This document shows, in pieces, positions 2,157 to 26,307 of a stretch of DNA of 33,669 bases (within the stretch, counting starts at the first letter, position 1; every line of letters begins with the position of its first letter). Under the pieces are notes generated by a model, which worked only from the letters and a program-made list of their open reading frames with translations, did not search any database and was not told the origin of the DNA. A program made the position numbers and the translations under genes. Origin of the DNA: Clostridia bacterium (GTDB taxonomy: Bacteria; Bacillota; Sulfobacillia; SLMV01); assembly GCA_007136565.1 (NCBI GenBank), contig SLGS01000074.1, positions 1 through 33,669 of the forward strand, given 5' to 3'.

Positions 2157-2777
2157 GTGTCCTTGGTGGATGACAGAGTATACCGGGTTGGCGAGGTAGC
2201 GGTTCACCCCGACGCAGGGGCCGTGGCCGCGGCCGCCGGTTATCCCGTTGGATCCAGCGATACGAGGATGGAGCGCACCCTGCGGCGTGCCCAAGGGCGG
2301 TACAGGGTCGAGCTCGCCTACTCCCGCGACTCAGTGGTCGTTAGCGGGGAGAGGATCGAAATCGGAGGGCATTCCACCCTTGATTCCCTTTCATTGTCGC
2401 GTTTCTTGCGGGGATGTACCGGCATCTTACTCCTGGCGTCCACGCTCGGTGCGCGAGTATCCGAGGATATCGAAAGGTTGGGCGAGACCGGGCGCATGGA
2501 CGAGGCCCACCTCCTCGATGCCGTCGCTTCCGAGATGGCCGACGAAGGGCTCGACGTCGCCCGGCGCATGGCCGTTCGCCATTTACTTAACCGGGGGGAG
2601 ATGGCCGCGCGTCGAAGGTTCAGCCCGGGATACGGGGATGTCGACCTCGGCTTTCAGCGGGTCTTGTTCGACCGATTGCGCCTGGGAGATCTCGGGATGT
2701 CGATACTGCCCAGTTGCATGCTGGTGCCAGAGAAGAGCGTCTTGGCGATGGTGGGGATTAGGAGGATGATGCGGTGA
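2157..2777 (+). CDS. Stand-alone methionine synthase activation (reactivation, SAM-binding) domain protein
   Basis: RRRFSPGYGDVDLGFQRVLFDRL and SCMLVPEKSVLAMVGI resemble the Met_synt_B12 activation domain (RxSPGYGDW ... MxPxKSVS). The start is GTG preceded by gggggaga. The stop overlaps the metH GTG (GTGA). Confidence 0.8.
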   Translation: MSLVDDRVYRVGEVAVHPDAGAVAAAAGYPVGSSDTRMERTLRRAQGRYRVELAYSRDSVVVSGERIEIGGHSTLDSLSLSRFLRGCTGILLLASTLGARVSEDIERLGETGRMDEAHLLDAVASEMADEGLDVARRMAVRHLLNRGEMAARRRFSPGYGDVDLGFQRVLFDRLRLGDLGMSILPSCMLVPEKSVLAMVGIRRMMR

Positions 2778-5179
2778 GCGAGAAGAGATTGTGGGAATTG
2801 CTGCGGGGTGGGCACATCCTGATGGATGGGGCGACCGGGCACGATTTGTTCCGGCTCGGGATGCCCCCGGGGGTGTGTCCGGAGGCGTGGATCCTGGAGA
2901 ACCCGGAAACGATCCGCGATCTGCAATCCCGCTACGTGGCGGCGGGATCCCGGGTGATCCTAACCCCGACCTTCGGCGCCAACCGCCGCAAGCTGGCCGG
3001 ATACGGTCTGGCGGATGACGTGGGGGAGATGAACCGAAGACTGGCCGAGTTATCGCGCTCGGTCGCCGGTCGGTCCCTGGTAGCGGGTGACGTGTCCATG
3101 ACCGGTGAATTCGTGCGACCGACGGGATCGCTGGATTTCGAGGAAGCCGTGGACCTATTCCGCGAGCAGATCGACGGATTGGTGCAAGGCGGCGTCGACT
3201 TGATATTCGTGGAGACCATGGTCGACCTCGCCGAGGCCCGGGCGGCACTCATCGCCGCTCGCGAGGCTTGTGATCTCCCGGTGATCTGCAGCATGACCTT
3301 CGAACCCGGTGGTGCCACGGTTACGGGCGTTCATCCCGCCAGCGCCCTCATCACGTTGCAGTCTTTGGGGGCCTTTGCCGTCGGATGCAACTGTTCCACC
3401 GGGCCCCGGGATATGCTGGGCATCATATCGGAGATGGTGCCCTACGCCGAGGTCCCGTTGGTGGCAAAGCCCAACGCCGGGTTGCCGAGGATGACGCTGG
3501 AAGGCGATGCACATTACCCGCTTTCCCCCGACGAATTCGCCGAGGAGTGCGCCCCGCTCCTGGCGGCCGGCGTGGAGATCATCGGGGGTTGCTGTGGGAC
3601 GAATCCCGGACACATCGCGGCTCTGGCCGCCCTCGACGATGGCTTCGGGGGACAACCTCCGCGATCCAGGGGTTCCCATCGCGGGATCGTTTGCTCGCCG
3701 AGGCGGCGGGTCGATCTCGGCGAGGCCCGACTGCGGATCATCGGTGAGCGCATAAACCCCAGCGGGAACCGCGAGCTATCGGAGGCTTTGAAACTCGGGC
3801 GTATGCACGTCGTGCGGGAATACGCCATCGAGCAGGAGGAGTGCGGGGCGGATCTACTGGACGTCAACGTGGGCTCACCTGCTTCGGGGGAACTACACAT
3901 AATCGACGCAGTCGTGGAGGAGATGGCCGCCCGAGATGTCCCTGTGGCCATCGACTCCGCGGATCCCGAGGTCATCCGCCGCGCCCTTCGTCACTACCCC
4001 GGGAGGGCACTGGTGAACTCCATCTCCCTCGAGCCCGAAAGGGCTGACGTTCTGCTGGATATCTGCCGCCAGTACGGTGCCGCCTTCATAGCCCTACCCA
4101 TAGGCGAGGATGGCATACCCGACACCGCGGAGGAACGCTTCGAAGTCCTCCGACGGATCGGGGAGAAAGCCACCGGGGATTACGCCATCGACCCCCGGGA
4201 CATCGTGTACGATTGCCTGATGCTACCGCTCTCCGCCGACCCCCGCGCCGCGGAGAAGGCTCTCGAGCTGGTGGAGCGGGTTCGGGACGAATTGGATGCC
4301 CCCGCCGTGTTGGGCGTGTCCAACCTCTCCTTCGGTCTGCCCCGCCGGGGTGCCCTCAACGCGACGTTTTTGGCCATGGCTTCCCGGGCCGGTTTGAACC
4401 TGGCCATAGCGAACCCCTGCGACGAGGCGGTAAGGGAGGTTCGGTTCTGCGTGGAAGCCATATCGGGTGGGGACGAGGGGCTTTCTGAGTACCTAGGCCT
4501 TTGGGTGAACGATGAAGATGGCGGGGACTTCGATTCCCTGGGTACGGCGGATAAGATCCGTTATTGCGTGCTCAGGGGGCTTCACGAGCGGGTGGTTGGG
4601 CTCGTCGGTACGGCCCTGGGCGAGATGGAGCCCGGAGACATCCTGGACTCCGCCGTGTTCCCCGCCATCCGCGAAGTGGGGACCCGCTACGAGGATGGTC
4701 GCATGTACCTGCCGCAGCTGGTCGCGTCGGCCCAGGCCGTGGAAAAGGCCGTCGCCTCCCTTCGCGAGTTGTATCCCGAGCGCGACGACGGGCGTGCACC
4801 CGTAGTGGTGATGGCTACGGTGAGGGGCGATGTCCACGACATCGGCAAGAACCTGGTTTGCATGATGCTCCGCAATCACGGCTTCCGTGTCATCGACCTG
4901 GGCCGCGATGTGCCCGCGGAGAGGATTCTCGACACACTGGTTCGGGAGAAGGCGGACCTGGTGGGGTTGTCCGCCTTGATGACCACCACGGCCGCCGAGA
5001 TGCGCAAGGTTGTCGCCGATATTCGCAGCCGGGAAATCCCCTGCCGCGTTTTGGTGGGTGGGGCGGTGATCACCGGGGATTTCGCCGAGGAGATAGGGGC
5101 GGATGGCTACGCATCCGACATGCACTCCGCCGTAGCCGTCGCCTCGCGCCTGGTGGGTGAGACGGGGGGTGCGCCATGA
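2774..5179 (+). CDS. metH: Cobalamin-dependent methionine synthase core (homocysteine S-methyltransferase + pterin-binding + B12-binding domains; no activation domain)
   Basis: The N-terminus shows the Hcy-binding pattern (ILMDGATGH ... GGCCGTNP). The middle is a pterin-binding region. The C-terminus carries the B12-binding motif GDVHDIGKNLV with LSALMTTT. At 801 aa it is too short to include the activation module. Confidence 0.92.
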   Translation: MSEKRLWELLRGGHILMDGATGHDLFRLGMPPGVCPEAWILENPETIRDLQSRYVAAGSRVILTPTFGANRRKLAGYGLADDVGEMNRRLAELSRSVAGRSLVAGDVSMTGEFVRPTGSLDFEEAVDLFREQIDGLVQGGVDLIFVETMVDLAEARAALIAAREACDLPVICSMTFEPGGATVTGVHPASALITLQSLGAFAVGCNCSTGPRDMLGIISEMVPYAEVPLVAKPNAGLPRMTLEGDAHYPLSPDEFAEECAPLLAAGVEIIGGCCGTNPGHIAALAALDDGFGGQPPRSRGSHRGIVCSPRRRVDLGEARLRIIGERINPSGNRELSEALKLGRMHVVREYAIEQEECGADLLDVNVGSPASGELHIIDAVVEEMAARDVPVAIDSADPEVIRRALRHYPGRALVNSISLEPERADVLLDICRQYGAAFIALPIGEDGIPDTAEERFEVLRRIGEKATGDYAIDPRDIVYDCLMLPLSADPRAAEKALELVERVRDELDAPAVLGVSNLSFGLPRRGALNATFLAMASRAGLNLAIANPCDEAVREVRFCVEAISGGDEGLSEYLGLWVNDEDGGDFDSLGTADKIRYCVLRGLHERVVGLVGTALGEMEPGDILDSAVFPAIREVGTRYEDGRMYLPQLVASAQAVEKAVASLRELYPERDDGRAPVVVMATVRGDVHDIGKNLVCMMLRNHGFRVIDLGRDVPAERILDTLVREKADLVGLSALMTTTAAEMRKVVADIRSREIPCRVLVGGAVITGDFAEEIGADGYASDMHSAVAVASRLVGETGGAP

Positions 5180-6057
5180 GGGTGAGCGAGATAGTCCGGA
5201 GGTCGCGCGGCTTCTCGTATTCCTTCGAAGTCTTCCCCGGTATGGGGAGAAATGGTCGGAATATCTACCGCGTAATCGATGAGATGGTAAAACTGGGACC
5301 CCGGTTCATCAGCGTCACCTACGGAGCGGGCGGGGGCAACCGGCGGGACCTGTTGAGCCTCTGTGGCCACATAGCCGCCCGGGGAGTCACTCCACTGCCC
5401 CATTTCACCGCCGTGGGGCACACCCGGCGCGAAGTGGACGAGGTGCTCTCCAGCTTCAGAGATCACCGATTCGAGAACGTCCTGGCCCTTCGCGGCGACC
5501 CGCCCCGGAATCACGAGGGTCCGGTGGAGGATCTGTTTCGGGACTTCTCCAACGCCTCACAGCTCATCCGCCACGTGAAGGAACACCACCCCCCGTGCGT
5601 GGGTGCCGCCGCTTACCCGGAGGGTCGTCCCGATTGTTCCCGGGAGGACAACCTGGGATATGCGCGGGAGAAACGGGATGCGGGGGCCGAATTCTTCATA
5701 ACGCAGATGTTTTTCGAAAATGATTGTTTCTACCGCTTCGTGGAGGAGTCCGGTCTCGGCGAGGCGGTGATCCCCGGGATACTGCCCATCTTCGGGCCGG
5801 GGCAGCTGGAGATGGCCAAGAATCTGGCCGGCGCCCATATCCCGCGGCCCCTACTCCAGCGATTGATGCGATGTCGAGATGACGCCGAAGCCTTTCGCGA
5901 AGTGGGACTGGATCACGCGTCGGCGCAGATATCCGAGCTGGTAGGGGCCGGTTTCGGTTTCGTCCACATCTTCACCCTGAACCGTTGGCGGGATACGGCG
6001 GAACTATTGGAGAGGGTCCGGTTGCGGGATCGGAGGAGGGCCAGTGGCCCTCGCTAG
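5176..6057 (+). CDS. metF: 5,10-methylenetetrahydrofolate reductase
   Basis: ATGA overlap with metH. MTHFR motifs present are SFEVFP, ISVTYGAGG, PHFTAVG, NVLALRGDPP and FFITQMFF. Confidence 0.9.
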   Translation: MRVSEIVRRSRGFSYSFEVFPGMGRNGRNIYRVIDEMVKLGPRFISVTYGAGGGNRRDLLSLCGHIAARGVTPLPHFTAVGHTRREVDEVLSSFRDHRFENVLALRGDPPRNHEGPVEDLFRDFSNASQLIRHVKEHHPPCVGAAAYPEGRPDCSREDNLGYAREKRDAGAEFFITQMFFENDCFYRFVEESGLGEAVIPGILPIFGPGQLEMAKNLAGAHIPRPLLQRLMRCRDDAEAFREVGLDHASAQISELVGAGFGFVHIFTLNRWRDTAELLERVRLRDRRRASGPR

Positions 6058-7123: not shown

Positions 7124-7296
7124 ATCGGGCCGGAATCACCCCGGGGGGTGATGACAGGTCACCCTCCGCCCACCTACCGTTGAAACGGCGCTCTTGCCCC
7201 CGTAGAAGACTAACCGAGGGGCTCGGTGCGCGACGTCGAATCGAAGGTAATCCCGGACCGGAGAGGATTGGTGTTCTATTGCCCCAACGGAGAGCA

Positions 7297-8883
7297 TTGA
7301 ATTCGAAGGACCACATTCGCGCGCGCGGATCGCTGCGACCGAGGCGCGTCCGCGTCCTTGCGCTCGTCCCAATAATATTACTACTCGCTGCGACGACCAT
7401 GGTGGCCTGTGGAGGTTCCGATGACGGAGCGCCGAACGGGGCATCGGACTCGCCGGACGGCGGCACTCTCGCCGCCGGGGATGCGACCCCGGATACGGCG
7501 GGAAATGACTCCGCTGCTGCGGGCGAGCTCCCCTTCGATTCCGCGACCCTGGTGGAAGCCATCGAGGAAGCGCACGGCCCCCTGGGCGAGGGGGGAGAGG
7601 GGCGATTCCTCCTGGGTTTCATGACCACCGAAGTGGTGGACGGCATTCCCGTGGACGCGGTGGAGAGCTACAACACGGGGGAGGAAGAGATATTCGCCTG
7701 GGTTGTCTTCGATGGCCTGGACGCCACCGCCCTGGAGGGCGAGATCCGTATTCCCTCTCGAGATGACGAGGTGGTGGCCACCGCTGAAGTGACGTTGGCC
7801 CATGGCCATGGTTGGAGTGGGATCCAGTTCCCCAGGCCCGATGAGGGTTGGCGGGTGGCCCATTACGAGGCCGTCATCAGTTCAGGTGAAGCCGAGATCA
7901 CCATGGAGTTCGTCATAAACTACCACCCGACCGGGGGGTCGAGCCTGGTTGCGGCCGACGGCCGGGTGAGCCTGCCGGGCGCCGTCGCGGTCCCGGGGGG
8001 GTCCTCGGGTTCTTGGCAGCTGGCCGATATACCGACGCCCGAGGACGGGTTCGGTGGTCTCTTGGTGGAATCGGGCCGTTGCCTCGCCTTCAACTACAGG
8101 GGAGACCTGGCGGTCTCCGATGATGGGGTGACCTGGGAGTCCATTACCCCCGATTTCGAAGTGGCACCCACCTCCTTCGACTCGGCCAACGGTCGATTCT
8201 TCGGTTTCACGCAGTCCCGTCCCAACCAGTATTCGTCCGGCGACGGGGTAAGTTGGACGCGATTCGAGATGGGTAACCATGATCCCCTTTCGAACATCTG
8301 GCATACCCACGATGGATATGTGGGTGGGTCGCACAGGAACATGATGATGCACTCCGAGGATGGTGGCACCACCTGGTGGCGCTACGGCTACGAAAAGGAA
8401 GGCCACACCAGCACCCAAAACGTCTATCTGCATGAAGTTAACCAGTTCTTCTACCACGGTGGCGAGTACTGGTGGGTCAAAGAAGACGGGATCGAACGGG
8501 GGAGGGTGCTGCACGATCCAGACACCTGGATACCCTTCGGCGAGGATGAATCCCGCATAGCCGGCGCCCGGGTGATCATCAATGGCGATGACATAATCTT
8601 CTGGCGTCACGGCACCCGGGACCTATGGGAGTATACCGGGGGCGGGTTTGCCAGGATAGATACGGATCTCGGGGGCGATGCCCTCTCCTCGATACTCCCG
8701 GGGAACGGGGGATACCTCGGGGTTCGATGGGACGGGGCGGTATTGCGATCCCCCGACGCCAGGGATTGGCACCTGGTGGCCGAAAGTCCCGAGGTCAACG
8801 AAGCCCCGGGGGGCTCGGCCATCGTCGGGGATCGGCTGGTGGTCATCTTCGGGGGCGTACTGTACAGTACGCCCATCGATTGA
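7297..8883 (+). CDS. Secreted lipoprotein with BNR/Asp-box repeats (probable beta-propeller)
   Basis: Signal peptide plus lipobox: RVRVLALVPIILLLAATTMVAC-GG. Asp-box motifs are SDDGVTWESI, SGDGVSWTRF and SEDGGTTWWRY. The ORF is open from TTG 7180 and contains no ATG before the signal peptide. In-frame TTG codons at 7279 and 7297 are the candidate starts, so the start is uncertain. Confidence 0.72.
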   Translation: MNSKDHIRARGSLRPRRVRVLALVPIILLLAATTMVACGGSDDGAPNGASDSPDGGTLAAGDATPDTAGNDSAAAGELPFDSATLVEAIEEAHGPLGEGGEGRFLLGFMTTEVVDGIPVDAVESYNTGEEEIFAWVVFDGLDATALEGEIRIPSRDDEVVATAEVTLAHGHGWSGIQFPRPDEGWRVAHYEAVISSGEAEITMEFVINYHPTGGSSLVAADGRVSLPGAVAVPGGSSGSWQLADIPTPEDGFGGLLVESGRCLAFNYRGDLAVSDDGVTWESITPDFEVAPTSFDSANGRFFGFTQSRPNQYSSGDGVSWTRFEMGNHDPLSNIWHTHDGYVGGSHRNMMMHSEDGGTTWWRYGYEKEGHTSTQNVYLHEVNQFFYHGGEYWWVKEDGIERGRVLHDPDTWIPFGEDESRIAGARVIINGDDIIFWRHGTRDLWEYTGGGFARIDTDLGGDALSSILPGNGGYLGVRWDGAVLRSPDARDWHLVAESPEVNEAPGGSAIVGDRLVVIFGGVLYSTPID

Positions 8884-10184: not shown

Positions 10185-11144
10185 ATGAAGCGATACCGGG
10201 GCAACTCTGCTCTAGCGCGCACTCTCCCGCTCGCAATTCAGTTCGCCCCTCGGTCTTTTATCTTGGCCTCGGATCTGCGATATTCCCGGTAATCGGTCAC
10301 CTCGGAGTGCTTTCCGTCACCAGTCGGAGTTTCGTCGCGCTCCATCGGGTAGGTCCCGTCTAGCCCAATAGGCGAGTCGGGGTTGGGGAGCATCCCCGCG
10401 ATCCTTTCTCGCCTCCTGCCCCCGGAGTAACCGTTCAATCACGTCGCCACTACTCAAACGGCGCCGATACCTCGCCGCAGGCCCTTAAGTCACCTTGGAC
10501 ACCTCCGCCAGTCCTCGGCCGGGTTCGTTTCCGGGCCGCCGGGTTGAAGGATGCGGCCTCGGCCACCGCGTTTGCCCGGGGGATTATCGCCCGCGCGGTT
10601 TTGGGGCGGGGTGCTTGGGACTGGAGGTTAGCCTCAGCATAATGGGATTCGCCCAGGGCGGTTGGCGCCATCCTCGAGTCGCGTGCGCCCGCGAGCGCGG
10701 TATTCGGCGTTGGTAACCGGACGAATCAGGGGTGTTGCCGAACCAGTCTCAGCCTGGTCCGGGCTACGACCATCGTGGTCGCGAAAACTCGAGTGCCGGG
10801 AGCGAAGAAAGGGGCGACGGCGTCACTCGCCCGGAATCGACCATCGCCTCCGGTGTGGTAACTGCTCTCGGGATCCCGATCCACCGTTTATCCTTCCCCA
10901 TCGCCGGGATGTTCCTACCAGGTGGGGAGGCCTCGATCGCCTTCGTCGGCAAGTCCCTTCGGATGGGCACCTTCTCGTTCGGTTTAAAGGGGGTGCTCAT
11001 CGTGGCCAACCGCGCCTTCCAAGGTGCCGGACGGACGGTGGTTGTCACGACGTTTTCGCTTTGTCCCGTGTAGGAATTGCGCGTTCCCTTGGCGTACTCA
11101 TCGTCTCAGCCGGTAGAATGGGAAAGACCCGCATCATCGATCGA
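10185..11144 (+). pseudogene. Decayed MATE-family efflux transporter pseudogene (paralogue of the intact gene at 32233-33606)
   Basis: Pieces in three frames align by eye to the intact MATE protein:
- GLKDAASATAFARGII vs GVQGAAVATVFSRGLA
- AVFGVGNR...SLSLVRATTIVV vs AAFGVGNR...SLGLGQATTTMV
- GMFLPGGEASIAFVGKSLRMGTFSFGLKGVLIVANRAFQGAGRTVVVTTFSL vs GIFLPGEELAMGLASDYLRVAAFSYGFLGVLNVANGAFRGAGRTVTAMTFAL
- GRMGKTRIID vs GTWKGRIID
The terminal CGCATCATCGATCGA matches CGCATAATCGATTGA with the stop codon lost. The 5' boundary is uncertain; homology is convincing only from about 10455. Confidence 0.7.
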
Positions 11145-11506
11145 GATTCGCATATCGGGGGGAGGAGGACAACGACACTTGCTCCCGAAATCTGAATGAT
11201 GCTGGTCCGGCGTGTGCGCCTCACGCGCGTTCCGCCACCACAAATAATCCATACAATTCTCCGAATCGCCATCCCTAAGGTTGAAGTGCGCTACGGGTGG
11301 GCGATCGGTAGGGTCTCAGGGGGAAACCCCGGGGCCTCCCGTGCTAGGAAAGGAGAATCGATGTGATGCCGGATTCGTATGCCCCCTTCCGCGGGAGGTG
11401 GCCTTCCCATTTCAGCTAGCCTCTTCCATCGGGAACCAAAATAGGTACTCGCAAATGCCCGGGCGCAGTGAGCCCAGGGCGGATCAGTGTGGGGAGGCGA
11501 GCGTTT

Positions 11507-12418
11507 GTGCGAAAGACTTGGTTGGTAGTTATGGTCCTGGTACTGATGACGGCGGCGATCGGGTGCGGCGATACTTCGACCGATCCGGGCGATGCCGATG
11601 ATATCGGGCTCAATCCGGAGGAAACGGTGGTCCTGGTCACGCCGAATAAAGGGGAGTCGGAACTCAGTCTGCGTGAGATAACGGAACTGGAATCGATTAC
11701 CCTGGAGATCGAGAGGGACACCGATGACGGTCCCGAGGAATTCGAGATCACCGGCGTTACCCTGGACGCAATGGCGGAAGCCGTCGATGTCGATCCGGCG
11801 ACGCTGGAAGGGTTGATCTTGGTCGCGGGCGATGGGTACTCGGTGGAAGTGTCGGCGGAGGTCCTGTCCGATCACGAGGCGGTATTCGCCTACTACGTCG
11901 ACGGAGAGGCATTAAGCGGCGATAGCGCACCCCTTCGCGCCTTCTTCCCGGGTTCGGAGACCATGTACTGGGTGAGAAACCTGGTCCGGATAGAATTCAT
12001 TGGTTCCGCCGAAAGGGCCGTCGCGGCGTCGGAGATTTACCTCCTGGAGACCCTCTTCGCCACCATGGAAGAGGTAGATTACGGCGGCGAGGCCGCAGTG
12101 CGTGCGTCGGATATCCTCGAGTACGCGAAGGGAGAAGGAAGAGTGTTCATGGCGGCCACCGACGGTTTCGAAAAGAGCGAGGGCGCGGACATCTTCTCGG
12201 AACACTTCGTGGTCACGACGGGCGATACCGCGCCGGCTTTTAGGGGAGAGGAACTGCCGCGCGGTATGCACGTCCGCGACCTGGTTTGGTTGACCGTTGG
12301 TGAAACAGCTTTCTATTCCGCGGCTCGCGGAGGCGAGTTGCTGCAGATCCTGGATGTAGAGAACCTCCGGTGTTTCGTTGGTGGCCCTGGTGGACGCCGT
12401 GGGATTGGCCGAAGTTGA
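11507..12418 (+). CDS. Lipoprotein with repeated beta-rich modules (molybdopterin-oxidoreductase-like fold signature); 3' end disrupted by a frameshift
   Basis: The GTG at 11507 lies 9 nt after ggggagg and gives VRKTWLVVMVLVLMTAAIG-C-GD (signal peptide plus lipobox). The longest ORF starts at 11468. Modules end in VRNLVRIEF and VRDLVWLTV. The last ~20 codons (CFVGGPGGRRGIGRS) look like out-of-frame read-through. Confidence 0.7.
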   Translation: MRKTWLVVMVLVLMTAAIGCGDTSTDPGDADDIGLNPEETVVLVTPNKGESELSLREITELESITLEIERDTDDGPEEFEITGVTLDAMAEAVDVDPATLEGLILVAGDGYSVEVSAEVLSDHEAVFAYYVDGEALSGDSAPLRAFFPGSETMYWVRNLVRIEFIGSAERAVAASEIYLLETLFATMEEVDYGGEAAVRASDILEYAKGEGRVFMAATDGFEKSEGADIFSEHFVVTTGDTAPAFRGEELPRGMHVRDLVWLTVGETAFYSAARGGELLQILDVENLRCFVGGPGGRRGIGRS

Positions 12419-12587
12419 TGCTCTAGTGCTAGAGGCCGTCGACGGATACTCCGTCGAGATAGGGTGGGGCGACCTGTCCCGGGGTGTAATCTACATTCGC
12501 GACTCCGGCGAGGTCTCGGTGGCCTTTGACGATCTGCCCCGCAGTGCCAATGTGCGGGATCTCCTCCGCATCGGGACGGGGGAATGA
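12378..12587 (+). CDS. Third repeat module of the preceding lipoprotein, in the +1 frame (frameshifted continuation, no signal peptide of its own)
   Basis: (TSGVS)LVALVDAVGLAEVDALVLEAVDGYSVEI...VRDLLRIGT aligns with repeat 1, ITGVTLDAMAEAVDVDPATLEGLILVAGDGYSVEV...VRNLVRIEF. This frame is open from 12360. Confidence 0.55.
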   Translation: MVALVDAVGLAEVDALVLEAVDGYSVEIGWGDLSRGVIYIRDSGEVSVAFDDLPRSANVRDLLRIGTGE

Positions 12588-12594
12588 TGTCAAA

Positions 12595-14127
12595 GTGACG
12601 GTGCTTTCATACCTCTTTCGCCCGCCGTGGCGACGACGCATCTTGGGTAGGGGGCCGAGTGCCGGGATGATGCTGCCTTTCCTCGTCGTGTTGGGGCTAT
12701 CGGTGGTCGCTTGCGGTTTGCCCTTGGGCGAGACGGCTCCCGAAGTCTCGCACGGGCTGTGGATCGTGGGCGATGTCGAGGTTGCAACGCAGATCGATTC
12801 CCTCGACCCGCGAGATTGGAGCGTAGAACGCCTGGAGCGGGGCGATCGGACCATAACTGTAATCCCGCTGGCGGAGTTATTGGAGATGTCAGCGCCCCTC
12901 GCTACTGAGTATCGAGTGGCGTTCGCCGGACGTGATGGGCGCCTGGCGGTCGTAGGAGGCGGGCACCTGGCCGACAGCCGATTAGGGTGGAGCGAAGAGT
13001 ACGGTTGGGAAGTGGTCAATCCCAACCACCCCGTCAGCGGTAACATAAAGGATCTAGAGGAAATCGTGGTCCTGGCCGAGGATCCCGGTCCGCGACATAG
13101 CCTCAATGTCATACGGCTCGGCGAGAATATCGATCGATACACGGTCGGGGAATTGGCGGTCGGTGAATATACCGTCGGTGCGGAACCCATCGGCTCGGCG
13201 TCGAGGGAGGTGGATGGCGTAAACCTCGAGGCCAAAATATACCAGCGGGAGCGTTGGATCGATTTGGATCGATTCGTCCGAAACCGCGACTACGAGGAAC
13301 TCGTGGTCGTCGGAGAGGCTGGAGAGGTGGCCGTCCACGCGCCCGGGGGCAAGATGATGCTCGAGAGGACGTCGCTTGCGTACCGTGCGGCGGATGGTGT
13401 GGAAATATCGAGGGTTAAGGGTATCGTCTTGGACCCCCCGAAGAGGATGAATACGGCGATCTTCGGGGATGCCAAGGAATCCCTCGAGCGCGGGATCCCC
13501 ACCATGGTGGTCTTGGTCGATGGCCTCGGGTGGGATCAGTATCTCCACATGATAGAGAACGGTAGGATGCCCTTCCTCGGGGCCGCCGGAGAACCGGACC
13601 CAGCCCTGGCGATCTACCCCTCCATCACGCCGGTGAACGTGGCCGCCTCCATCACCGGTGCGCTGCCGCATGAGAGCGGAGTCGTGGCCAGGAACACCAG
13701 GATTCCCGAGGTTCCAACCCTTTTCCAATGGGCGCGCGAGCGAGGTATGGAGGAGAGCGCAGTCATCGGGCCCATTGCCCCCATCGATCTCGGTACCGAT
13801 CCGCATTTTCGTACCGACGAGAACGGGGATGGTTCCGAGGACGACGAGATATTCGACACAACCCTAAAGCTAGCTGGGGAAGGGTACGACTTTCTCTATG
13901 TGCACTTCAAGGGCGTGGATGTCGCGGGGCACGCCCACGGGGCGTTTGCGGAAGAGACCCTCTCTGCCATCGATAGAATCGACGGGTACGTGAGGGGATT
14001 GGCCCATGTGTGGGAGGGGAATATGATAGTCTACTCCGACCACGGCATGAAGACGACCCCGGACGGGGGAGAGCACGGTCTGTTCGTCCACGAGGACATG
14101 TTCGTTCCCCACTGGTACTTGCGCTGA
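12595..14127 (+). CDS. Lipoprotein: N-terminal repeat modules fused to a nucleotide pyrophosphatase/phosphodiesterase (alkaline phosphatase superfamily) domain
   Basis: Signal peptide and lipobox: WRRRILGRGPSAGMMLPFLVVLGLSVVAC-G. NPP motifs are VVLVDGLGWD, YPSITPVNVASITGALPHESGV (Thr nucleophile context), YVHFKGVDVAGHAHG and YSDHGM. The start is either GTG 12595 (gggggaa RBS) or ATG 12667. Confidence 0.8.
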   Translation: MTVLSYLFRPPWRRRILGRGPSAGMMLPFLVVLGLSVVACGLPLGETAPEVSHGLWIVGDVEVATQIDSLDPRDWSVERLERGDRTITVIPLAELLEMSAPLATEYRVAFAGRDGRLAVVGGGHLADSRLGWSEEYGWEVVNPNHPVSGNIKDLEEIVVLAEDPGPRHSLNVIRLGENIDRYTVGELAVGEYTVGAEPIGSASREVDGVNLEAKIYQRERWIDLDRFVRNRDYEELVVVGEAGEVAVHAPGGKMMLERTSLAYRAADGVEISRVKGIVLDPPKRMNTAIFGDAKESLERGIPTMVVLVDGLGWDQYLHMIENGRMPFLGAAGEPDPALAIYPSITPVNVAASITGALPHESGVVARNTRIPEVPTLFQWARERGMEESAVIGPIAPIDLGTDPHFRTDENGDGSEDDEIFDTTLKLAGEGYDFLYVHFKGVDVAGHAHGAFAEETLSAIDRIDGYVRGLAHVWEGNMIVYSDHGMKTTPDGGEHGLFVHEDMFVPHWYLR

Positions 14128-14469: not shown

Positions 14470-15588
14470 ATGGAATCGCGGCTTTGGCAGGTATTCCTCC
14501 TCGCAGCTCGCATGGGCGTAGCCGCATTCGGTGGGCCCGTGGCCCATCTCGCCATGATGGAAAGAGAGGTCATCGAAAAGAGGGGATGGATCGAGCGAGA
14601 CCACTTCATGGACCTCCTCGCCATCACCAACCTCGTTCCGGGACCCAACTCGACGCAAATGATAATGCACTTCGGGTTCGTCAGGGGCGGTGACCCCGGG
14701 ACCTGGATCGCGGGATTGGGATTCATCCTCCCGGCATTCCTGATCACCTTGGCCCTCAGCTGGTTTTACGTCCACCTGGGGATGCTTCCCGCCGTGGAGG
14801 CGATATTTTACGGCATCAAGCCCGCCATAGTTGCCCTCATAGTGACCGCTCTCTGGCGCATGAGCCGGAAGGAGATCCGAGGCGCGGAATCCGCGGTCCT
14901 TTTCTCCCTCGCCGTTTTCGCATCTTTCCTCGGGGTGAACGAACTCTTGGTAATGGCCGGGGGGGCTTTTTGGGGATTGGCACGTCACCTCCGCGGCAGG
15001 ATCCTGTCCGTGGTCCCCACCGGCATTCTCATGCTCGGGGCGACCTCTACCGCTCCCGGCGGCAGCACGTTGACGTCGCTGGGGCTACTGTTCCTGAGGT
15101 TTGGAGCCACGCTATATGGCAGTGGATACCTCCTCATCGCCTTCATACAAAGGGACCTGGTCTCGCGGATGGGCTGGCTAACGGGCCAGCAACTTCTCGA
15201 CGCCATAGCCATCGGTCAGATGACGCCCGGCCCGATACTCACGACCTCGACCGTAGTGGGTTACATCGTCTCCGGCGTTCCCGGCGCCATCGTAGCTACC
15301 ACGGCCATCTTCCTCCCGTCCTTTTTCTTCGTGATGATGGTGGGGCGCTGGATGGACCGCCTTAGGGACTCGCGCTTGGCTCGTTCCACCATCGACGCCA
15401 TACTGCCCACCATACTGGGCGTCATCGCCGTGGTCGCCTGGGGACTCGGGCGAGAGGCCCTGGTGGACCCCTTTTCCGTCGCGCTGGCCATCGGAGCCGG
15501 GATCGCGCTCATGAAGGCCCGGATGGACTCCGTGCTCGTGATCATCCTGGCCTCGGGAGTCGGCTACGTGTGGCAGGTACTGTTATAG
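14470..15588 (+). CDS. chrA: Chromate ion transporter (CHR family), two-domain form
   Basis: Motifs GVAAFGGPVAHLAMMEREVIEKRGWI, LAITNLVPGPNSTQM and, in the second half, IAIGQMTPGPILTTSTVVGY. Confidence 0.9.
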   Translation: MESRLWQVFLLAARMGVAAFGGPVAHLAMMEREVIEKRGWIERDHFMDLLAITNLVPGPNSTQMIMHFGFVRGGDPGTWIAGLGFILPAFLITLALSWFYVHLGMLPAVEAIFYGIKPAIVALIVTALWRMSRKEIRGAESAVLFSLAVFASFLGVNELLVMAGGAFWGLARHLRGRILSVVPTGILMLGATSTAPGGSTLTSLGLLFLRFGATLYGSGYLLIAFIQRDLVSRMGWLTGQQLLDAIAIGQMTPGPILTTSTVVGYIVSGVPGAIVATTAIFLPSFFFVMMVGRWMDRLRDSRLARSTIDAILPTILGVIAVVAWGLGREALVDPFSVALAIGAGIALMKARMDSVLVIILASGVGYVWQVLL

Positions 15589-15792
15589 GTTATGGAGGCC
15601 GAAGGCTGGCCTCGCTGCGTCGAGACCACCCACCGCACCCTCGAAGCATGCTATCTCGCGTCTCCCTACCGCCGATCTTATCGATACCGAATACTGGATA
15701 GTACGCGGGATTGCGAAGGATTCATTACCCCACCGTAGAAGCATCGAGGTAGCACATGCATTGTGCAATCATATATTGGAGGAGGTTCGAAA

Positions 15793-16398
15793 ATGTCCGA
15801 AGAGATCGCACGCGTCGGCAAGAAAGCACCCGACTTCAAAGCCAATGCATACGTGGATGGCGGCTTCGAGAAAGTCAGCCTTTCATCTCACGCGGGCAAG
15901 TGGGTGGTCCTCTGCTTCTATCCCGGGGACTTCACCTTCGTCTGACCTACCGAACTGGCGTCAGTTGGCGCCCATTACCCCGAATTACAGGAACTGGGTG
16001 TTGAGGTCCTGTCCTGCAGTGTGGACAGCCAGTACACCCACAAGATATGGCAGGAGCAGGAGCTCTCCAAGATGGTCGAGGGTGGAGTTCCGTTCCCCAT
16101 GCTCTCCGACACCGGCGGCAAGATCGGTCGCCTTTACGGAGTGTACGATGAAGAAGAGGGCGTGAATATCCGCGGCCGCTTCCTAATTGATCCCGACGGT
16201 ATCATCCAGGCGATGGAAGTATTGACGCCCCCCGTGGGCCGCAACTTCCAGGAGCTGGTGCGCCAGGTCAAAGCGTTCCAGCACGTCCGGGAAACCGGCG
16301 AGCCCACGCCTGCAGGCTGGCAGCCCGGAAAGAAGACCCTCAAGCCCGGTCCGGACCTGGTCGGTAAGGTATGGGAAGTGTGGAAGATAGGGGAGTAG
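15793..16398 (+). CDS. Peroxiredoxin (AhpC/Prx1-type) with in-frame UGA (selenocysteine) at the peroxidatic Cys position (codon 15943-15945)
   Basis: ggaggagg RBS 7 nt before ATG 15793. ORFs 15763-15945 and 16021-16398 share one frame. Read-through gives [50 protein letters not shown], a continuous Prx sequence of 201 residues. A hairpin lies directly 3' of the TGA. Confidence 0.85.
15950..15968 (+). promoter_or_regulatory. Candidate bacterial SECIS hairpin
   Basis: It starts 5 nt after the UGA. The stem is cc(g)aactg / cagttgg: 7 bp with one bulged G. The apical loop is GCGU and contains a GU dinucleotide. Confidence 0.5.
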
Positions 16399-16650: not shown

Positions 16651-17610
16651 ATGAGAGCCGTGAAGATCAAGTGGATGATATCTTTTGTCCTGGTGATGGT
16701 CCTGGGACTTGCGCTGGCCTGCGGTGGCCAGGCTGCGGATCCGGATTCCGAGGCGTCGAAGGGGCCGATCACCATCGCCTCCATGATAGACTCCGAGGGC
16801 GCCATCCTCGGCCAAATGATGGTGTTGCTCCTCGAGGCAGAGGGCTTTGAGGTGGACGACAAGACCGAGTTCGGAACGCCGGACATCCTTCGGGGTGCCC
16901 TAATGGGCGGCGAGGTAGACTTGGTCCTGGATTACACCGGCTCTGGCCAGTATTATCATGACGTCGACGATACGGACCCCTGGTCCGATGCGGAGGCTGG
17001 CTACCAGCTGACCCGCGAGTTGGATGCCGAGGCTAACGACATACATTGGCTCACGCCGGCGCCGGCCAATAACACCGAGATGCTGGCCCTGCGGCGGGAC
17101 TTCGCCGAGGAACGCGGGATCGCGGACATGTACGATTTCGCCGAGTACGTGAACGCCGGTGGCGAGGTCAAGCTGATCTCATCGGCGTCCTTCGCCGAGA
17201 ACGTGAAGGGACTCCTGGGTTACGAGCAAGCTTACGGGTTCAATCTCTCGGGGGATCAGTTAATTCTCCTGTCGGCGGGTAACACCGCCGAGATGCTTCG
17301 GGCCCTGGTCGAGGGAACCAACGATGTCAACGTTTCGTTGGTCTACGGGACCGACGGTGCCCTGGAGCAAATGGACCTGGTGGTCATCGATGATCCCGAG
17401 AGCATACCCCCGGTGTACCTCCCGACACCCGTTCTCCGCGGCGAGATCCACGAGCGATATCCGCAGATCGAAGAAATCCTGGCACCGGTATTCGAGACGC
17501 TGACCCTGGAAACGCTTCAAGGTTTGAACGCCGCCGTGGCGTACGAGGGACGGGATCCCACCAGCGTAGCCCGGGAGTACCTGGTATCCCACGGATTCCT
17601 GGAGGAATGA
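16651..17610 (+). CDS. Osmoprotectant (glycine betaine/choline-type) ABC transporter substrate-binding lipoprotein
   Basis: Lipobox LGLALAC-GG. The sequence shows the OpuBC/OsmX-type pattern (ITIASMIDSEGAILGQMM...DLVLDYTGSG...VVIDDPESIPPVYLPTPVLR). Confidence 0.85.
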   Translation: MRAVKIKWMISFVLVMVLGLALACGGQAADPDSEASKGPITIASMIDSEGAILGQMMVLLLEAEGFEVDDKTEFGTPDILRGALMGGEVDLVLDYTGSGQYYHDVDDTDPWSDAEAGYQLTRELDAEANDIHWLTPAPANNTEMLALRRDFAEERGIADMYDFAEYVNAGGEVKLISSASFAENVKGLLGYEQAYGFNLSGDQLILLSAGNTAEMLRALVEGTNDVNVSLVYGTDGALEQMDLVVIDDPESIPPVYLPTPVLRGEIHERYPQIEEILAPVFETLTLETLQGLNAAVAYEGRDPTSVAREYLVSHGFLEE

Positions 17611-18800
17611 GCGCGGAGGCGATGCCGATGACCGACTCGCCGTTGGACAAGGTGACGATGCTCGGGGTACTCCTGTTCGGATTCGCCCTGGCGGTCCCGG
17701 CCTTCGTCACCTATCGCCCGAGTCGAATAGTGCGGGGGGAGCCCCTCTCCGCCCTGGAGTCGGCGGGACCGGCGTTTTGGGCCCTGGTGGCCTTGTTGCT
17801 GGTGATGGCGTTGGCCGCGACATCTCGGGGTTCGGTCCTCCGGGGTATGCCCACGGCCCTGGTCGGGGCCGTGGCGGCGGCGACGGTGGTCTGGGTCGTC
17901 GGATTGGCGGCCCAAGGGCTGGTGACATCCGAAGCACCCTACGCGCGGGTCTCGCTGTCCGCGGGTTTTTGGCTGGCCCTCTTCGGGGCCTACCTGGTCG
18001 TGGTGGGAGGTCTCAGGGGATACGGGGGAGCCGGATCGGCCGCTCTCTCGGTCGGTATCATGCCCCTCGCGTCGGTGGCGGTGATGCTCGTCGCAGGTCA
18101 CCTGGATGATCTATCGATAATGCGCGAATTCTTCAACCGGAGGGGAAGTTTTCTCTCCGAGCTTTCCACCCACGTGACCCTCTCCTTCTCGGCCGTGGGC
18201 GCGGGAACGGTGATCGGACTGATCCTGGCCTTCGTGATCTTTCGATACGTGGCCACCGAGCGTTACCTGTTCTTCTTCGTCAACCTATTCCAAACCATCC
18301 CTACCCTATCGTTTCTGGGACTATTGATGGCACCCCTGGCCTTCTTGGCGGCGCGATATGCTTTCCTCAGGGGGTTCGGCATCAGCGCCATAGGGTGGGC
18401 GCCGGCTTTCATCGTCCTCTTCGCGTACACCCTATTGCCGGTCACCAGTAACGCCCTCGCCGGTTTTCGCATCGTCGAGCCCAGGGTGTTGGAGGCGGCC
18501 CGGGGTATGGGCATGACCGGGAACCAGGTCTTTTGGAGGATACAGTTGCCCCTGGCGCTTCCCGTCATCGTTTCGGGCGTACGGACGGCGCTAACCCAGG
18601 CCATCGGAAACACCATCTTGGCCGGGTTGATCGGCGGCGGTGGGATGGGTACCATCATCTTCCTCGGTTTGGCCCAGGCCGCCCCGGACCTGATACTGCT
18701 GGGGACCATTCCTGTGGTGATCCTCGCCTTGGTAGCGGACTACGCCATGAAGGGATTATCCGAGATGCTGTCGAGAAGCCTGTTGAGGGGTTCGCAATGA
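17607..18800 (+). CDS. ABC transporter permease (BPD_transp_1) with an extra N-terminal multi-TM extension
   Basis: ATGA overlap with the upstream gene. The C-terminal half carries a permease EAA-like region (VLEAARGMGMTGNQVFWRIQLPLALPVIVSGVRTA). The first ~170 residues are additional hydrophobic helices. Confidence 0.85.
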   Translation: MSAEAMPMTDSPLDKVTMLGVLLFGFALAVPAFVTYRPSRIVRGEPLSALESAGPAFWALVALLLVMALAATSRGSVLRGMPTALVGAVAAATVVWVVGLAAQGLVTSEAPYARVSLSAGFWLALFGAYLVVVGGLRGYGGAGSAALSVGIMPLASVAVMLVAGHLDDLSIMREFFNRRGSFLSELSTHVTLSFSAVGAGTVIGLILAFVIFRYVATERYLFFFVNLFQTIPTLSFLGLLMAPLAFLAARYAFLRGFGISAIGWAPAFIVLFAYTLLPVTSNALAGFRIVEPRVLEAARGMGMTGNQVFWRIQLPLALPVIVSGVRTALTQAIGNTILAGLIGGGGMGTIIFLGLAQAAPDLILLGTIPVVILALVADYAMKGLSEMLSRSLLRGSQ

Positions 18801-19759
18801 TAGAAGTCAGGGGAGTCACCAAGGAATACGGGGAGGTAGTCGCCGTACGGGACGTATCCCTCGAGATCGGTCGCGGAGAATTGACCGTGCTCATCGGTCC
18901 CTCGGGGTGCGGCAAGTCCACGCTGATCCGCACCATTAACCGTATGATAGAACCCACCGAGGGGACGGTGGAGATAGACGGCGTCGATGTCCGCGAGAGC
19001 CGCGTGGAGGAACTCCGGCGAGGGATCGGATACGTGATACAAACGGTGGGGCTCTTCCCACACTTTTCCGTCAGGGAGAACATAGCCACGGTGCCGAGGC
19101 TCCTGGGTTGGGAGAGGGAGCGAACGGAGCGACGCGTCATGGAGCTTTTGGACATGATGGGGCTGCATCGCTCCTTCGCCGACAAGCGACCCAGGGAACT
19201 TTCCGGGGGAGAGGCCCAAAGGGTGGGCGTGGCGCGCGCCCTGGCCGCCGACCCCCCCATACTCCTCATGGATGAACCCTTCGGAGCCGTGGATCCCCAG
19301 AATCGGGCCCGACTCCAGGAGGAGTTCTATAGCATACAGAAGCGCCTCAAGAAGACCGTGGTGTTCGTCACCCACGACGTGGAGGAAGCTGTACGCCTGG
19401 CGGATCGCATTGCCTTGATGCGCGCCGGGCGGGTGGTGCAGTACACTACCCCGGAGCGCTTCATCCTGGAACCCGCGGAGGCCTTCGTCTCGGAGTTCCT
19501 CGGGATCGAGTACCCGCTGAGACTCCTGGGGCGACACAGCGTGGCCGACTGTTACCGTAAGGACGCCGCGCCCGGCGATACTCCAGGCCCGGGACAAGCG
19601 GTGCCCATGGATACCCCTACCCGGGAGGCCCTATCTTTGCTGGTGGCCTCCGGCCAGAAACGCCTGGACGTTGTGGATTCCGACGGTAGAGTCGTCGGCA
19701 CTTTCGACTTCGAATCGGTACTGGGTCTGCTCGGGGGTGGTCCCGGTGGCGAAGGCTAA
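18797..19759 (+). CDS. ABC transporter ATP-binding protein (OpuCA/OsmV-like) with a short C-terminal CBS-like region
   Basis: ATGA overlap with the upstream gene. Walker A GPSGCGKST, Q-loop, signature LSGGEAQRV, Walker B ILLMDEPFGAVD and H-loop VTHD are all present. Confidence 0.92.
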   Translation: MIEVRGVTKEYGEVVAVRDVSLEIGRGELTVLIGPSGCGKSTLIRTINRMIEPTEGTVEIDGVDVRESRVEELRRGIGYVIQTVGLFPHFSVRENIATVPRLLGWERERTERRVMELLDMMGLHRSFADKRPRELSGGEAQRVGVARALAADPPILLMDEPFGAVDPQNRARLQEEFYSIQKRLKKTVVFVTHDVEEAVRLADRIALMRAGRVVQYTTPERFILEPAEAFVSEFLGIEYPLRLLGRHSVADCYRKDAAPGDTPGPGQAVPMDTPTREALSLLVASGQKRLDVVDSDGRVVGTFDFESVLGLLGGGPGGEG

Positions 19760-20483
19760 CCGGGTCGGCTGGATCAAGGCCGCGCTACTTTTCGCCGCAT
19801 TCTTCTTCGTCGTATTCCGCTTTGCGACGCTCGAGTCCCTCTTCCCCTCCATATTGGTGCGTCGCGGGATCATGGTCGAACGGGTACCCCTTTGGATGAC
19901 CGCCTGGCAACACGTCTACCTTGTGGTCATATCCAGCGCCATGTCCGTGGCGGTGGCCGTCGCCCTGGGCGTGATCACCTTCTTCCCCTTCGCCCGGGAG
20001 TTTCGAGACCTGTTCATCGAACTGTCCAACCTGGGGGAAACTTTTCCCTCGGTGGCGATAATCGCCTTGACGGTTCCGATGCTCGGGTACGGATTCTGGC
20101 CCGTCCTCCTCGCCCTCTTCATCTACGGGATCCTGCCCGTACTGCGCAATACCATCACGGGAATCGAGAACGTGGACCCGTCGGTGCTGGATTCGGCCCG
20201 GGGCATGGGGATGGGCCAGGTGGAGACCATCCTTCGCGTGGCACTACCACTGGCGCTGCCAGTCATCGTCGCCGGGATCAGGACCTCGGTTATCATCAAT
20301 ATAGGGGCGGCCACCATCGGGGCTACTGTGGGTGCCGGGGGGTTCGGGATCCCCATAATCAGCGGTATCAGGAGCAACGATATGGCCCTGGTCCTGCGCG
20401 GGTCCATCCCCGTAGCCCTGCTGGCCGTGTCCGCGGACAGTCTTTTCGCCCTGGCCGAAGATGCGGTGTCCCGAGGGAGCTGA
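19746..20483 (+). CDS. ABC transporter permease (second membrane subunit)
   Basis: The in-frame GTG at 19746 overlaps the ATPase 3' end. EAA-like region VLDSARGMGMGQVETILRVALPLALPVIVAGIRTS is present. The track ORF from 19671 overlaps the ATPase gene extensively. Confidence 0.85.
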   Translation: MAKANRVGWIKAALLFAAFFFVVFRFATLESLFPSILVRRGIMVERVPLWMTAWQHVYLVVISSAMSVAVAVALGVITFFPFAREFRDLFIELSNLGETFPSVAIIALTVPMLGYGFWPVLLALFIYGILPVLRNTITGIENVDPSVLDSARGMGMGQVETILRVALPLALPVIVAGIRTSVIINIGAATIGATVGAGGFGIPIISGIRSNDMALVLRGSIPVALLAVSADSLFALAEDAVSRGS

Positions 20484-25236: not shown

Positions 25237-26085
25237 CTAGTCCAGTGCACCTTCCATGACTATGAACTCGTGGGCGTCGAAGGAGAAACCCCATCGCCGC
25301 AATAGATCGCCGATATCCGTCCTGTGCGGAGGGAAGAGGCAGGCGATCTTGGAAACCCCGGTTTCGCGGGCCCGGGCGATGCCCTCTCGCAAGCCGACTT
25401 CGGCGTCGCCACCCAGGTAGGCGATGTGGAACTCGCGCTCGGGCATGAAACGGGCTCCCATGAACGCGATGTTCCCGAGGGAATCCCCGTAAAACTTGCC
25501 CTCCCGGGCCCAGACCCGGAGGGTGTCCGGGGAGAATGTGAAGAAGGTCCGGTTCATCACGGTGAAATCGCCCCATTCCCTTCGGCCCCGTGCCGCGGTC
25601 ATCCGGACCTCCCCGGGATCGTCGATGGGGGAGAGAGTCCCCGGGGGGCCGGTTTCCGGCAGATGTTCCGGCGCAGCGAGGGCACCGCGGAAAGTGGCCG
25701 CGACGGAGAAACCGAACAGCTCCGCCAGGCCCTTGCTGGCGGCATTGGTTACCCCGGTGTACATTCGCATGGTGGTAACGCCCCTCGGGCGCGCCAGATG
25801 AAAGAACCAGCGATAGAACTCCTTGCCGACTCCGAGCCCCTGGTACTCGGGCGAAACCCGAAGGGATTCCAACCACGCGGAACCGTCGGGAAGGATGGTG
25901 AACTTCCCGCAGCCGGCGGGTCGGCCATCGATCTCCGCGATACCGAACCCACCCCTCTCATCGGCGATGAACTCGTCGAAGACCTCTTCGAGATACCTGT
26001 GATTGGGCATGGCCCCGGCCTCGATGTGGGCCACGGCTTCGCGATCGGTGGGACGAACCGACCGCAATCTAATGTTCTCGGGCAT
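25237..26085 (-). CDS. GNAT family N-acetyltransferase with an additional C-terminal domain
   Basis: LESLRVSPEYQGLGVGKEF (acetyl-CoA binding Q/RxxGxG). ATG 26085 is preceded by GGAGG at 7-nt spacing. The track start, GTG 26121, has no RBS. Confidence 0.8.
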   Translation of the reverse strand: MPENIRLRSVRPTDREAVAHIEAGAMPNHRYLEEVFDEFIADERGGFGIAEIDGRPAGCGKFTILPDGSAWLESLRVSPEYQGLGVGKEFYRWFFHLARPRGVTTMRMYTGVTNAASKGLAELFGFSVAATFRGALAAPEHLPETGPPGTLSPIDDPGEVRMTAARGRREWGDFTVMNRTFFTFSPDTLRVWAREGKFYGDSLGNIAFMGARFMPEREFHIAYLGGDAEVGLREGIARARETGVSKIACLFPPHRTDIGDLLRRWGFSFDAHEFIVMEGALD

Positions 26086-26307
26086 GAAATGACCTCCAGT
26101 CAAAGTTGCTATCGACTCCACCAGATGAGTGTATCATTCTTCCCGGGTGACGTTCCTCCTTCGATCTCGTGGGTCGGAGAAGGTCTTTTCGCGGCGTGCG
26201 CCGGCCGCGCGGGCGTGGTAGACTCTACCCGTCGTCCGGGTGCACGGGGTGCAGTTCGTTTAGTCGTTGCCCGGGGATAAAACGAGTTTTCGGGGTGATC
26301 CCATACC

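Follow-up and report, generated by a model that had tools for sequence, protein, structure and literature searches.

The window, that is the whole stretch of 33,669 nt analysed here, very probably contains an intact gene of the expressed type for a selenocysteine (Sec)-containing peroxiredoxin of the PrxU family with Prx1/AhpC fold. The peroxiredoxin frame contains a single TGA, and this TGA is located at FTFV-U-PTE, the site of the peroxidatic residue. The gene is a member of a known family and nothing new in kind, because its score against the curated NCBIfam model NF040737 (peroxi_PrxU) lies above the cut-off and because Sec-containing peroxiredoxins of the TxxU type are established in the literature. 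The gene is of value for correct annotation and for inferring selenium use of the host; the Sec-peroxiredoxins themselves date back to 2001 in the literature and are covered by a curated NCBI model. prxU also provides indirect evidence that an uncultured, high-GC Bacillota-like organism uses selenocysteine. The features of the gene are compiled in Table 1.

Table 1. Features of the prxU region, in window coordinates.
Feature	Position	Strand	Description
Shine-Dalgarno sequence GGAGGAGG	15778-15785	+	7 nt before the ATG; read from the sequence
prxU CDS	15793-16398	+	201 codons including Sec51, stop codon TAG 16396-16398; from translation and HMM matches
Cys41 (TGC)	15913-15915	+	10 residues before Sec; near-invariant
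UGA codon, predicted Sec residue 51	15943-15945	+	peroxidatic position of P44-x3-T48-x2-U51; TGA conserved in the family
Predicted bacterial SECIS hairpin	15957-15972	+	5' arm GGCGUC 15957-15962, loop AGUU 15963-15966, 3' arm GGCGCC 15967-15972
C-terminal 125-aa piece called as a gene of its own	16021-16398	+	GTG start, no RBS
Thr172 (ACG)	16306-16308	+	canonical position of the C-terminal resolving Cys; GEV-C-PAGW replaced by GEP-T-PAGW; from alignment to human Prx2 (1qmv/5ijt)

One reading frame interrupted by a single TGA

The first-pass annotation of this DNA had noticed that two ORFs share a frame and are separated only by a TGA and 75 nt. The ORF listing and the translation bear this out: the ORFs at 15763-15945 (60 aa) and 16021-16398 (125 aa) lie in a common frame, and the gap between them consists of the TGA and 75 nt that code for 25 residues. 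Read through from the ATG at 15793, the frame comprises 201 residues including the TGA position, and no second in-frame TGA occurs within it. The full-length protein behind a strong ribosome binding site that had been proposed is thus found, with the Shine-Dalgarno sequence at the spacing given in Table 1 and an in-frame stop 11 codons 5' of the ATG. A gene call in L081, a related metagenome contig, begins at the same ATG and ends as a 50-aa fragment. The identical 125-aa product is recorded in two ENA assemblies, in each adjoining an N-terminal fragment of 50/52 aa. A scan for sigma-70 promoter and intrinsic terminator consensus sequences around prxU found none, and the aligned upstream regions of the closest relatives contain no conserved upstream operator.

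Family membership and active site

Translated with Cys for the TGA, the read-through protein matches both Pfam HMMs that had been suggested for a check, AhpC-TSA (3.9e-40, residues 8-140) and 1-cysPrx_C (1e-8, residues 161-194). Its score against NF040737 is 369.2 bits (E = 8.7e-111), above the equivalog cut-off of 270 bits, and the Cys-forms P0017, P0024, P0047 and P0063 likewise pass this model. The match spans profile positions 34-231; positions 1-33, which represent an N-terminal extension, are absent, and the cut-off does not require them. The AhpC equivalog TIGR03137 gives 201.8 bits, below its cut-off of 272, which leaves the protein outside AhpC. Human Prx2 is the best match among solved structures (PDB 1qmv/7kj1, with 5ijt also aligned; E = 1.7e-51, residues 6-188). 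P44, T48, R127 and residue 51 are found in the same register as in human Prx2, and the TGA corresponds to the peroxidatic Cys51 of that enzyme. The protein contains the motif PxxxTxxU with P44, T48 and U51. The Pfam matches and the register with human Prx2 both agree with the original placement of the TGA at the peroxidatic cysteine of AhpC/Prx1 enzymes.

With PrxU of Eubacterium (Peptoclostridium) acidaminophilum and with the NF040737 family the window protein shares the Prx1/AhpC fold, a UGA for Sec in TxxU and a SECIS within the CDS just downstream, where the likeness to the E. acidaminophilum enzyme is drawn via the family model NF040737 and not from direct sequence identity. It differs from most members of NF040737 by the absence of the ~33-residue N-terminal extension with C-x-x-P-A-x-G-P-I. 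In contrast to typical 2-Cys peroxiredoxins (human Prx2, AhpC of TIGR03137), it has Sec for the peroxidatic Cys, Thr172 for the resolving C172 and Cys41 for Phe41. The Prx-like thiol:disulfide oxidoreductases (UxxC/UxxU) and Prx-SUH (NF045827, CxxU) share the thioredoxin fold and a PF00578 match with the window protein (PMC13188914). However, the UxxC/CxxU selenoproteins carry Sec in a redox motif, whereas the window protein carries a peroxidatic TxxU in TFVU-PTE and therefore is not of those types.

The statement that Sec-containing peroxiredoxins exist is well founded in the literature, the family being known since 2001 and represented by NF040737. A TxxU peroxiredoxin is listed as an experimentally verified prokaryotic selenoprotein, citing Sohling et al. 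2001 (Biol Chem 382:979) for PrxU of E. acidaminophilum (PMC13188914), and the Sec-Prx (TxxU) family as such is established and verified by experiment (PMC13188914, PMC1794560, PMC1088965). Syntrophomonas wolfei and Symbiobacterium thermophilum are among the organisms with members of the family (PMC1794560), and Sec-peroxiredoxin is among the commonest families in selenoproteome surveys.

Conservation of the TGA codon

A genome scan with one genome per species yielded, as the best 80 loci, homologues with 70-90% protein identity; the closest of them, with 80-90% identity, are from Bacillota, Clostridia and Syntrophomonadaceae MAGs. These 80 loci hold 84 family copies, with two copies at three loci. 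TGA is found at the peroxidatic codon in 83 of the 84 copies, and only L038 carries TGC. The loci are distributed over about a dozen phyla (Bacillota, Chloroflexota, Desulfobacterota, Actinomycetota, Acidobacteriota, Nitrospirota, Planctomycetota, Zixibacteria, Ignavibacteria and Armatimonadota), and Syntrophomonadaceae are included. Among the best 120 matches in the protein database, 73 have W at this site, 26 (strict motif) or 30 (broader pattern) have Cys, and 6 are C-terminal fragments of 147 residues with 86-90% identity. The alternation of Cys and Sec in orthologues that had been named as a test is therefore seen, with TGA in nearly all copies on the genome side and Cys in up to a quarter of the proteins. 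The W calls stem from short contigs for which the gene caller chose code 4 (a code 4/25 reading). For P0001, the stored W was checked at the DNA level and is encoded by TGA in an otherwise code-11 context.

Downstream of the TGA, the window and its relative L001 differ at 11, 2 and 60 sites in codon positions 1, 2 and 3, respectively, with 53 codons changed only synonymously against 11 that change the amino acid. This divergence, dominated by third positions, argues that the part after the TGA is translated. Purifying selection acts on both sides of the TGA. Disabling mutations in relatives, which had been put forward as a sign of a pseudogene, were not found. The same TGA is found in two independent ENA assemblies (ERZ27301263, ERZ27301261; loci L081, L082), which share 99.7% identity with the window. 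Within the window, TGA is the terminator of 11 of the 21 confident genes, and prxU is the only gene in which it occurs internally. The genetic code of the organism is the standard bacterial one. The scan for in-frame TGA codons in the window gave no credible candidate for a second selenoprotein gene.

Three related loci carry two Sec-Prx genes a few kb apart, and every one of these genes has a TGA and a hairpin of its own: L024 (5700, 11042), L043 (6662, 7537) and L071 (7584, 10133). In a pair of Acidobacteriota MAGs, L038 (10139, TGC) and L034 (8282, TGA), the catalytic codon differs while the intact SECIS hairpin is identical. This pair looks like a recent Sec/Cys conversion, and the full hairpin kept in the TGC form L038 is as expected if the conversion is recent.

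A conserved SECIS hairpin downstream of the TGA

A hairpin with a GU-containing loop had been noted after the TGA. The hairpin is present and conserved, but its stem starts 11 nt after the TGA and not 5 nt, as first given, and its loop lies 17 nt after the UGA. G15964 and U15965, at +22/+23 counted from the U of the UGA, are conserved in the loop. The consensus model for bacterial SECIS elements (bSECIS) of Zhang and Gladyshev 2005, as summarised in PMC13188914 (Fig. 2A), allows apical loops of 3-9 nt with a G among the first two nucleotides and upper stems of 4-16 bp, at a distance of 16-37 nt to the UGA, and calls for an MFE <= -7.5 kcal/mol. The hairpin agrees with this published model on all four counts: the loop has 4 nt, with G in second place and U after it, the stem has 6 bp, the spacing from the UGA is 17 nt, and the MFE is -9.8 kcal/mol. 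The proposed search for a SECIS element downstream of the TGA thus has a positive outcome.

The significance of the hairpin derives from comparative data and not from the stability of the single sequence, as the window hairpin alone is only weakly better than shuffled sequences (z = -1.55, 14/200). We aligned 83 TGA-containing homologues in codon register over 75 columns (alignment A1). The consensus helix of 8 bp comprises columns 22-29/34-41, corresponding to 15955-15962/15967-15974 of the window. Across the 83 Sec-forms, 85% of the cells pair, and compensatory changes on both sides are observed in six of the eight pairs. Double-change cells number 50, compared to 21.3 +/- 3.3 after shuffling, with none of 500 shuffles reaching the observed value, and slid controls give covariation scores far lower than the true helix. 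Covariation is strongest between synonymous third positions, namely at columns 27:36, which contain GC 68 times and AU 9 times, and at the loop-flanking columns 30:33 (15963:15966), which are AU in 55, GC in 25 and GU in 2 sequences. The family loop is AGUU or, second commonest, GGUC; its U is invariant and its G is found in at least 90% of the 83 Sec-forms. This covariation points to a hairpin that is kept by selection and not by coding constraint. In the window copy, the two lowest consensus pairs are mismatched. Five Cys-form homologues, a small control, keep just 4-5 of the 8 pairs, with only one of them retaining the loop-closing pair.

RNAalifold returned an empty consensus for the 83 sequences and 75 columns; the helix was seen by eye and then tested by explicit pair counts. 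Rfam gave no match at the hairpin site, neither at the gathering threshold nor with E up to 10, and evidently contains no fitting bacterial SECIS model. An MFE fold of 15940-16005 that places the UGA inside a stem was rejected, being neither conserved nor better than shuffles.

The apical loop of the SECIS element of E. coli fdhF is GGUC, and its G23 and U24 contact SelB. The window hairpin shares with this element and with the bSECIS model the location within the CDS directly 3' of the UGA, a small loop with G followed by U and a covarying N1:N2 pair. It differs from the fdhF element in its stem of 6 bp (8 bp in the family consensus), and no equivalent of the bulged U was identified. Codon 59 (15967-15969) is of particular relevance for the stem. 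It is GGC (Gly) in the window, L001 and L002 and GCC (Ala) in the nearest relatives, and GGC turns a U-C mismatch opposite the Ser codon TCA into a U-G pair. Here, RNA structure apparently shapes the protein sequence, and the change suggests ongoing selection on the hairpin in the window, L001 and L002.

Proposed decoding of the UGA and alternative explanations

Bacterial Sec insertion uses a UGA together with a SECIS hairpin immediately 3' of it. From this established pathway, we infer that the UGA of prxU is decoded as Sec51. The UGA would then not be read as a stop during translation; the hairpin would present the exposed G-U in its tetraloop, closed by the covarying pair, and recruit SelB-GTP-Sec-tRNA(Sec) to the ribosome with the UGA in the A site, so that selenocysteine would be inserted as residue 51. 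The initial reading as a Sec-peroxiredoxin gains support from the HMM matches, the fit to the bSECIS model, the Sec/Cys alternation, the intact frames of relatives and the two further assemblies.

The host genome would be expected to encode selA, selB, selC and selD. As already stated by the first-pass annotation, these genes are absent from the window, where we find no selA, selB, selD or tRNA-Sec over 33.7 kb. Scans for tRNA-Sec gave none in the window and 60 related loci, and motif searches for SelD and SelA gave none in 1.25 Mb of flanks. A single Sec-machinery gene was seen close to a prxU, 6 kb downstream of it in a Desulfobacterales MAG (L072, 16644-16919). It encodes the N-terminal 92 residues of a SelB-like GTPase, is cut by the contig end and matches TIGR00475 with 114 bits over 89 positions.

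This lack of Sec machinery in the window would also fit a host without working Sec insertion, in which the gene and its SECIS are intact, the UGA leads to termination or near-cognate misreading as Cys or Trp, and prxU is a recent relic. The absence of another selenoprotein gene from the window and the mismatch of the two lowest helix pairs also speak for this reading. We nevertheless consider a relic very improbable. No damage is seen in frame, RBS or SECIS, most differences from close relatives are synonymous, and the U-G pair restored by GGC at codon 59 in the window, L001 and L002 suggests that selection on the hairpin continues.

Further explanations dispense with Sec altogether. TGA is one base away from TGC and TGT, and gene callers report two fragments, as would be the case for a nonsense mutation in an ordinary Cys-peroxiredoxin. 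The same TGA in 83 of the 84 copies from the best 80 loci across about a dozen phyla, the lack of further frame disruptions, the purifying selection downstream of the TGA and a covarying SECIS specifically tied to TGA forms effectively refute such a pseudogene, to which we assign only a minimal probability. An error of sequencing or assembly at this one base is just as hard to sustain, as the assemblies ERZ27301263 and ERZ27301261, 99.7% identical to the window, have the same TGA and the codon is conserved across the family. The W at the site in 73 of the 120 database homologues could be read as an alternative code with TGA as Trp or Gly (code 4 or 25). This reading is refuted, with a negligible chance left to it: TGA ends 11 of the 21 confident window genes and is internal to no other, and the W calls come from short contigs with a caller-chosen code 4, the codon being verified as TGA in a code-11 context. 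Moreover, given the established peroxiredoxin mechanism, an enzyme with Trp or Gly in place of the peroxidatic residue would be catalytically inactive. Taken together, the conservation of the TGA, selection, independent assemblies and stop codon usage therefore leave no room for a pseudogene, an error of sequencing or a deviant genetic code.

Proposed catalysis and the resolving residue

From the active-site residues and the established pathway, peroxidase catalysis by Sec51 can be proposed for the PrxU-type enzyme. Sec51, in the active site formed by P44-x3-T48-x2-U51 and R127, would attack peroxides and be converted to a selenenic acid, which a thiol partner would reduce back; the NCBI family name suggests thioredoxin as this reductant.

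Less clear from the family pattern is the resolving residue. At the canonical C-terminal resolving position, occupied by Thr172 in the window protein, no PrxU family member among the database matches has Cys. Cys is found instead at -10 relative to the catalytic residue in 72 of 73 TGA-forms and 23 of 30 Cys-forms among the database matches, as well as in nearly all genome loci. This Cys41, for which ordinary Prx1/AhpC enzymes have Phe, is placed on the beta-strand that runs up to the active-site loop. Outside the clade of the window, most PrxU homologues have an N-terminal extension of ~35 residues with K-D-x-C-V-x-P-A-[KRAG]-G-P-I, and the Syntrophomonadaceae-like clade starts with MSCEEG or MSCAEG, in which Cys is the third residue. 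Besides the window, the loci L001, L002, L005, L007, L022 and L054 lack the extension, which most other loci contain; in the window, L001 and L002, the MSCEEG-type start is missing as well, and there is no N-terminal Cys. The N-terminal Cys of the relatives may be the resolving Cys of the family. Because Thr172 replaces the canonical resolving Cys and the window clade has no N-terminal Cys, Cys41, Cys75 or direct reduction are the candidates left for this clade.

Resolution by Cys41 would involve an intrasubunit selenenylsulfide with Sec51. We regard this role, suggested by conservation and placement of the residue, as rather unlikely. Alternatively, the protein could be a true '1-Sec' enzyme, in which the selenenic acid is reduced directly. 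To our knowledge, a resolving position of the Cys41 type has been described for no peroxiredoxin class; if true, resolution by Cys41 would represent a new resolving-residue position among peroxiredoxins.

Examples of the N-terminal extension among L009-L080 and beyond are seen at L013 (upstream of 10001), at L065 and at L087 (1001-1100), and the corresponding stretch of the window, 15760-15792, has none. Some database members carry a signal-peptide-like leader before the extension.

Annotation and genomic context

Pipelines of the Prodigal type split the gene (50 + 125 aa) or turn the catalytic Sec into Trp, an error present in 73 of the 120 best database homologues. An antioxidant selenoenzyme, and with it the selenium dependence of the host, is therefore easily missed in MAGs. 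The expectation that standard annotation would split the gene applies to metagenome callers, which report 50 + 125 aa in L081, 54 + 147 aa in L083 and W in the JGI calls; it does not extend to NCBI, where the curated equivalog NF040737 already exists. For the PrxU family as a whole, Trp at the catalytic site and fragments of 147 aa represent a systematic annotation artefact.

In the window, prxU is flanked by a chromate transporter (14470-15588) on one side and by an ABC transporter of the glycine-betaine type (16651-20483) on the other. Long ORFs that have no Pfam match are located at 7180-8883 (567 aa), 25324-26280 (318 aa) and 10662-11195 (177 aa). The window also contains two riboswitches. 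A SAM riboswitch (RF00162, 1957-2063, 93.8 bits) is followed by an ORF without Pfam match (2157-2777), a MetH-like homocysteine methyltransferase with B12-binding domains (2774-5179) and MTHFR (5176-6057). A Moco/Tuco riboswitch (RF01055, 11247-11371, 65.8 bits) precedes two genes, one (11468-12418) whose product contains a weak molybdopterin-oxidoreductase domain and one (12526-14127) for a phosphodiesterase-like protein.

At related loci, a gene of the FUR family (PerR-like) adjoins prxU in L084 (9315-9770), L085 (3131-3586), L086 (2674-3129) and L087 (277-759). In the closest JGI metagenome contigs, L092 (859-1203) and L093 (650-994), a gene of the ArsC/Spx family (PF03960) is located 22 nt downstream of the Sec-prx gene, and its product could serve as redox partner or in regulation.
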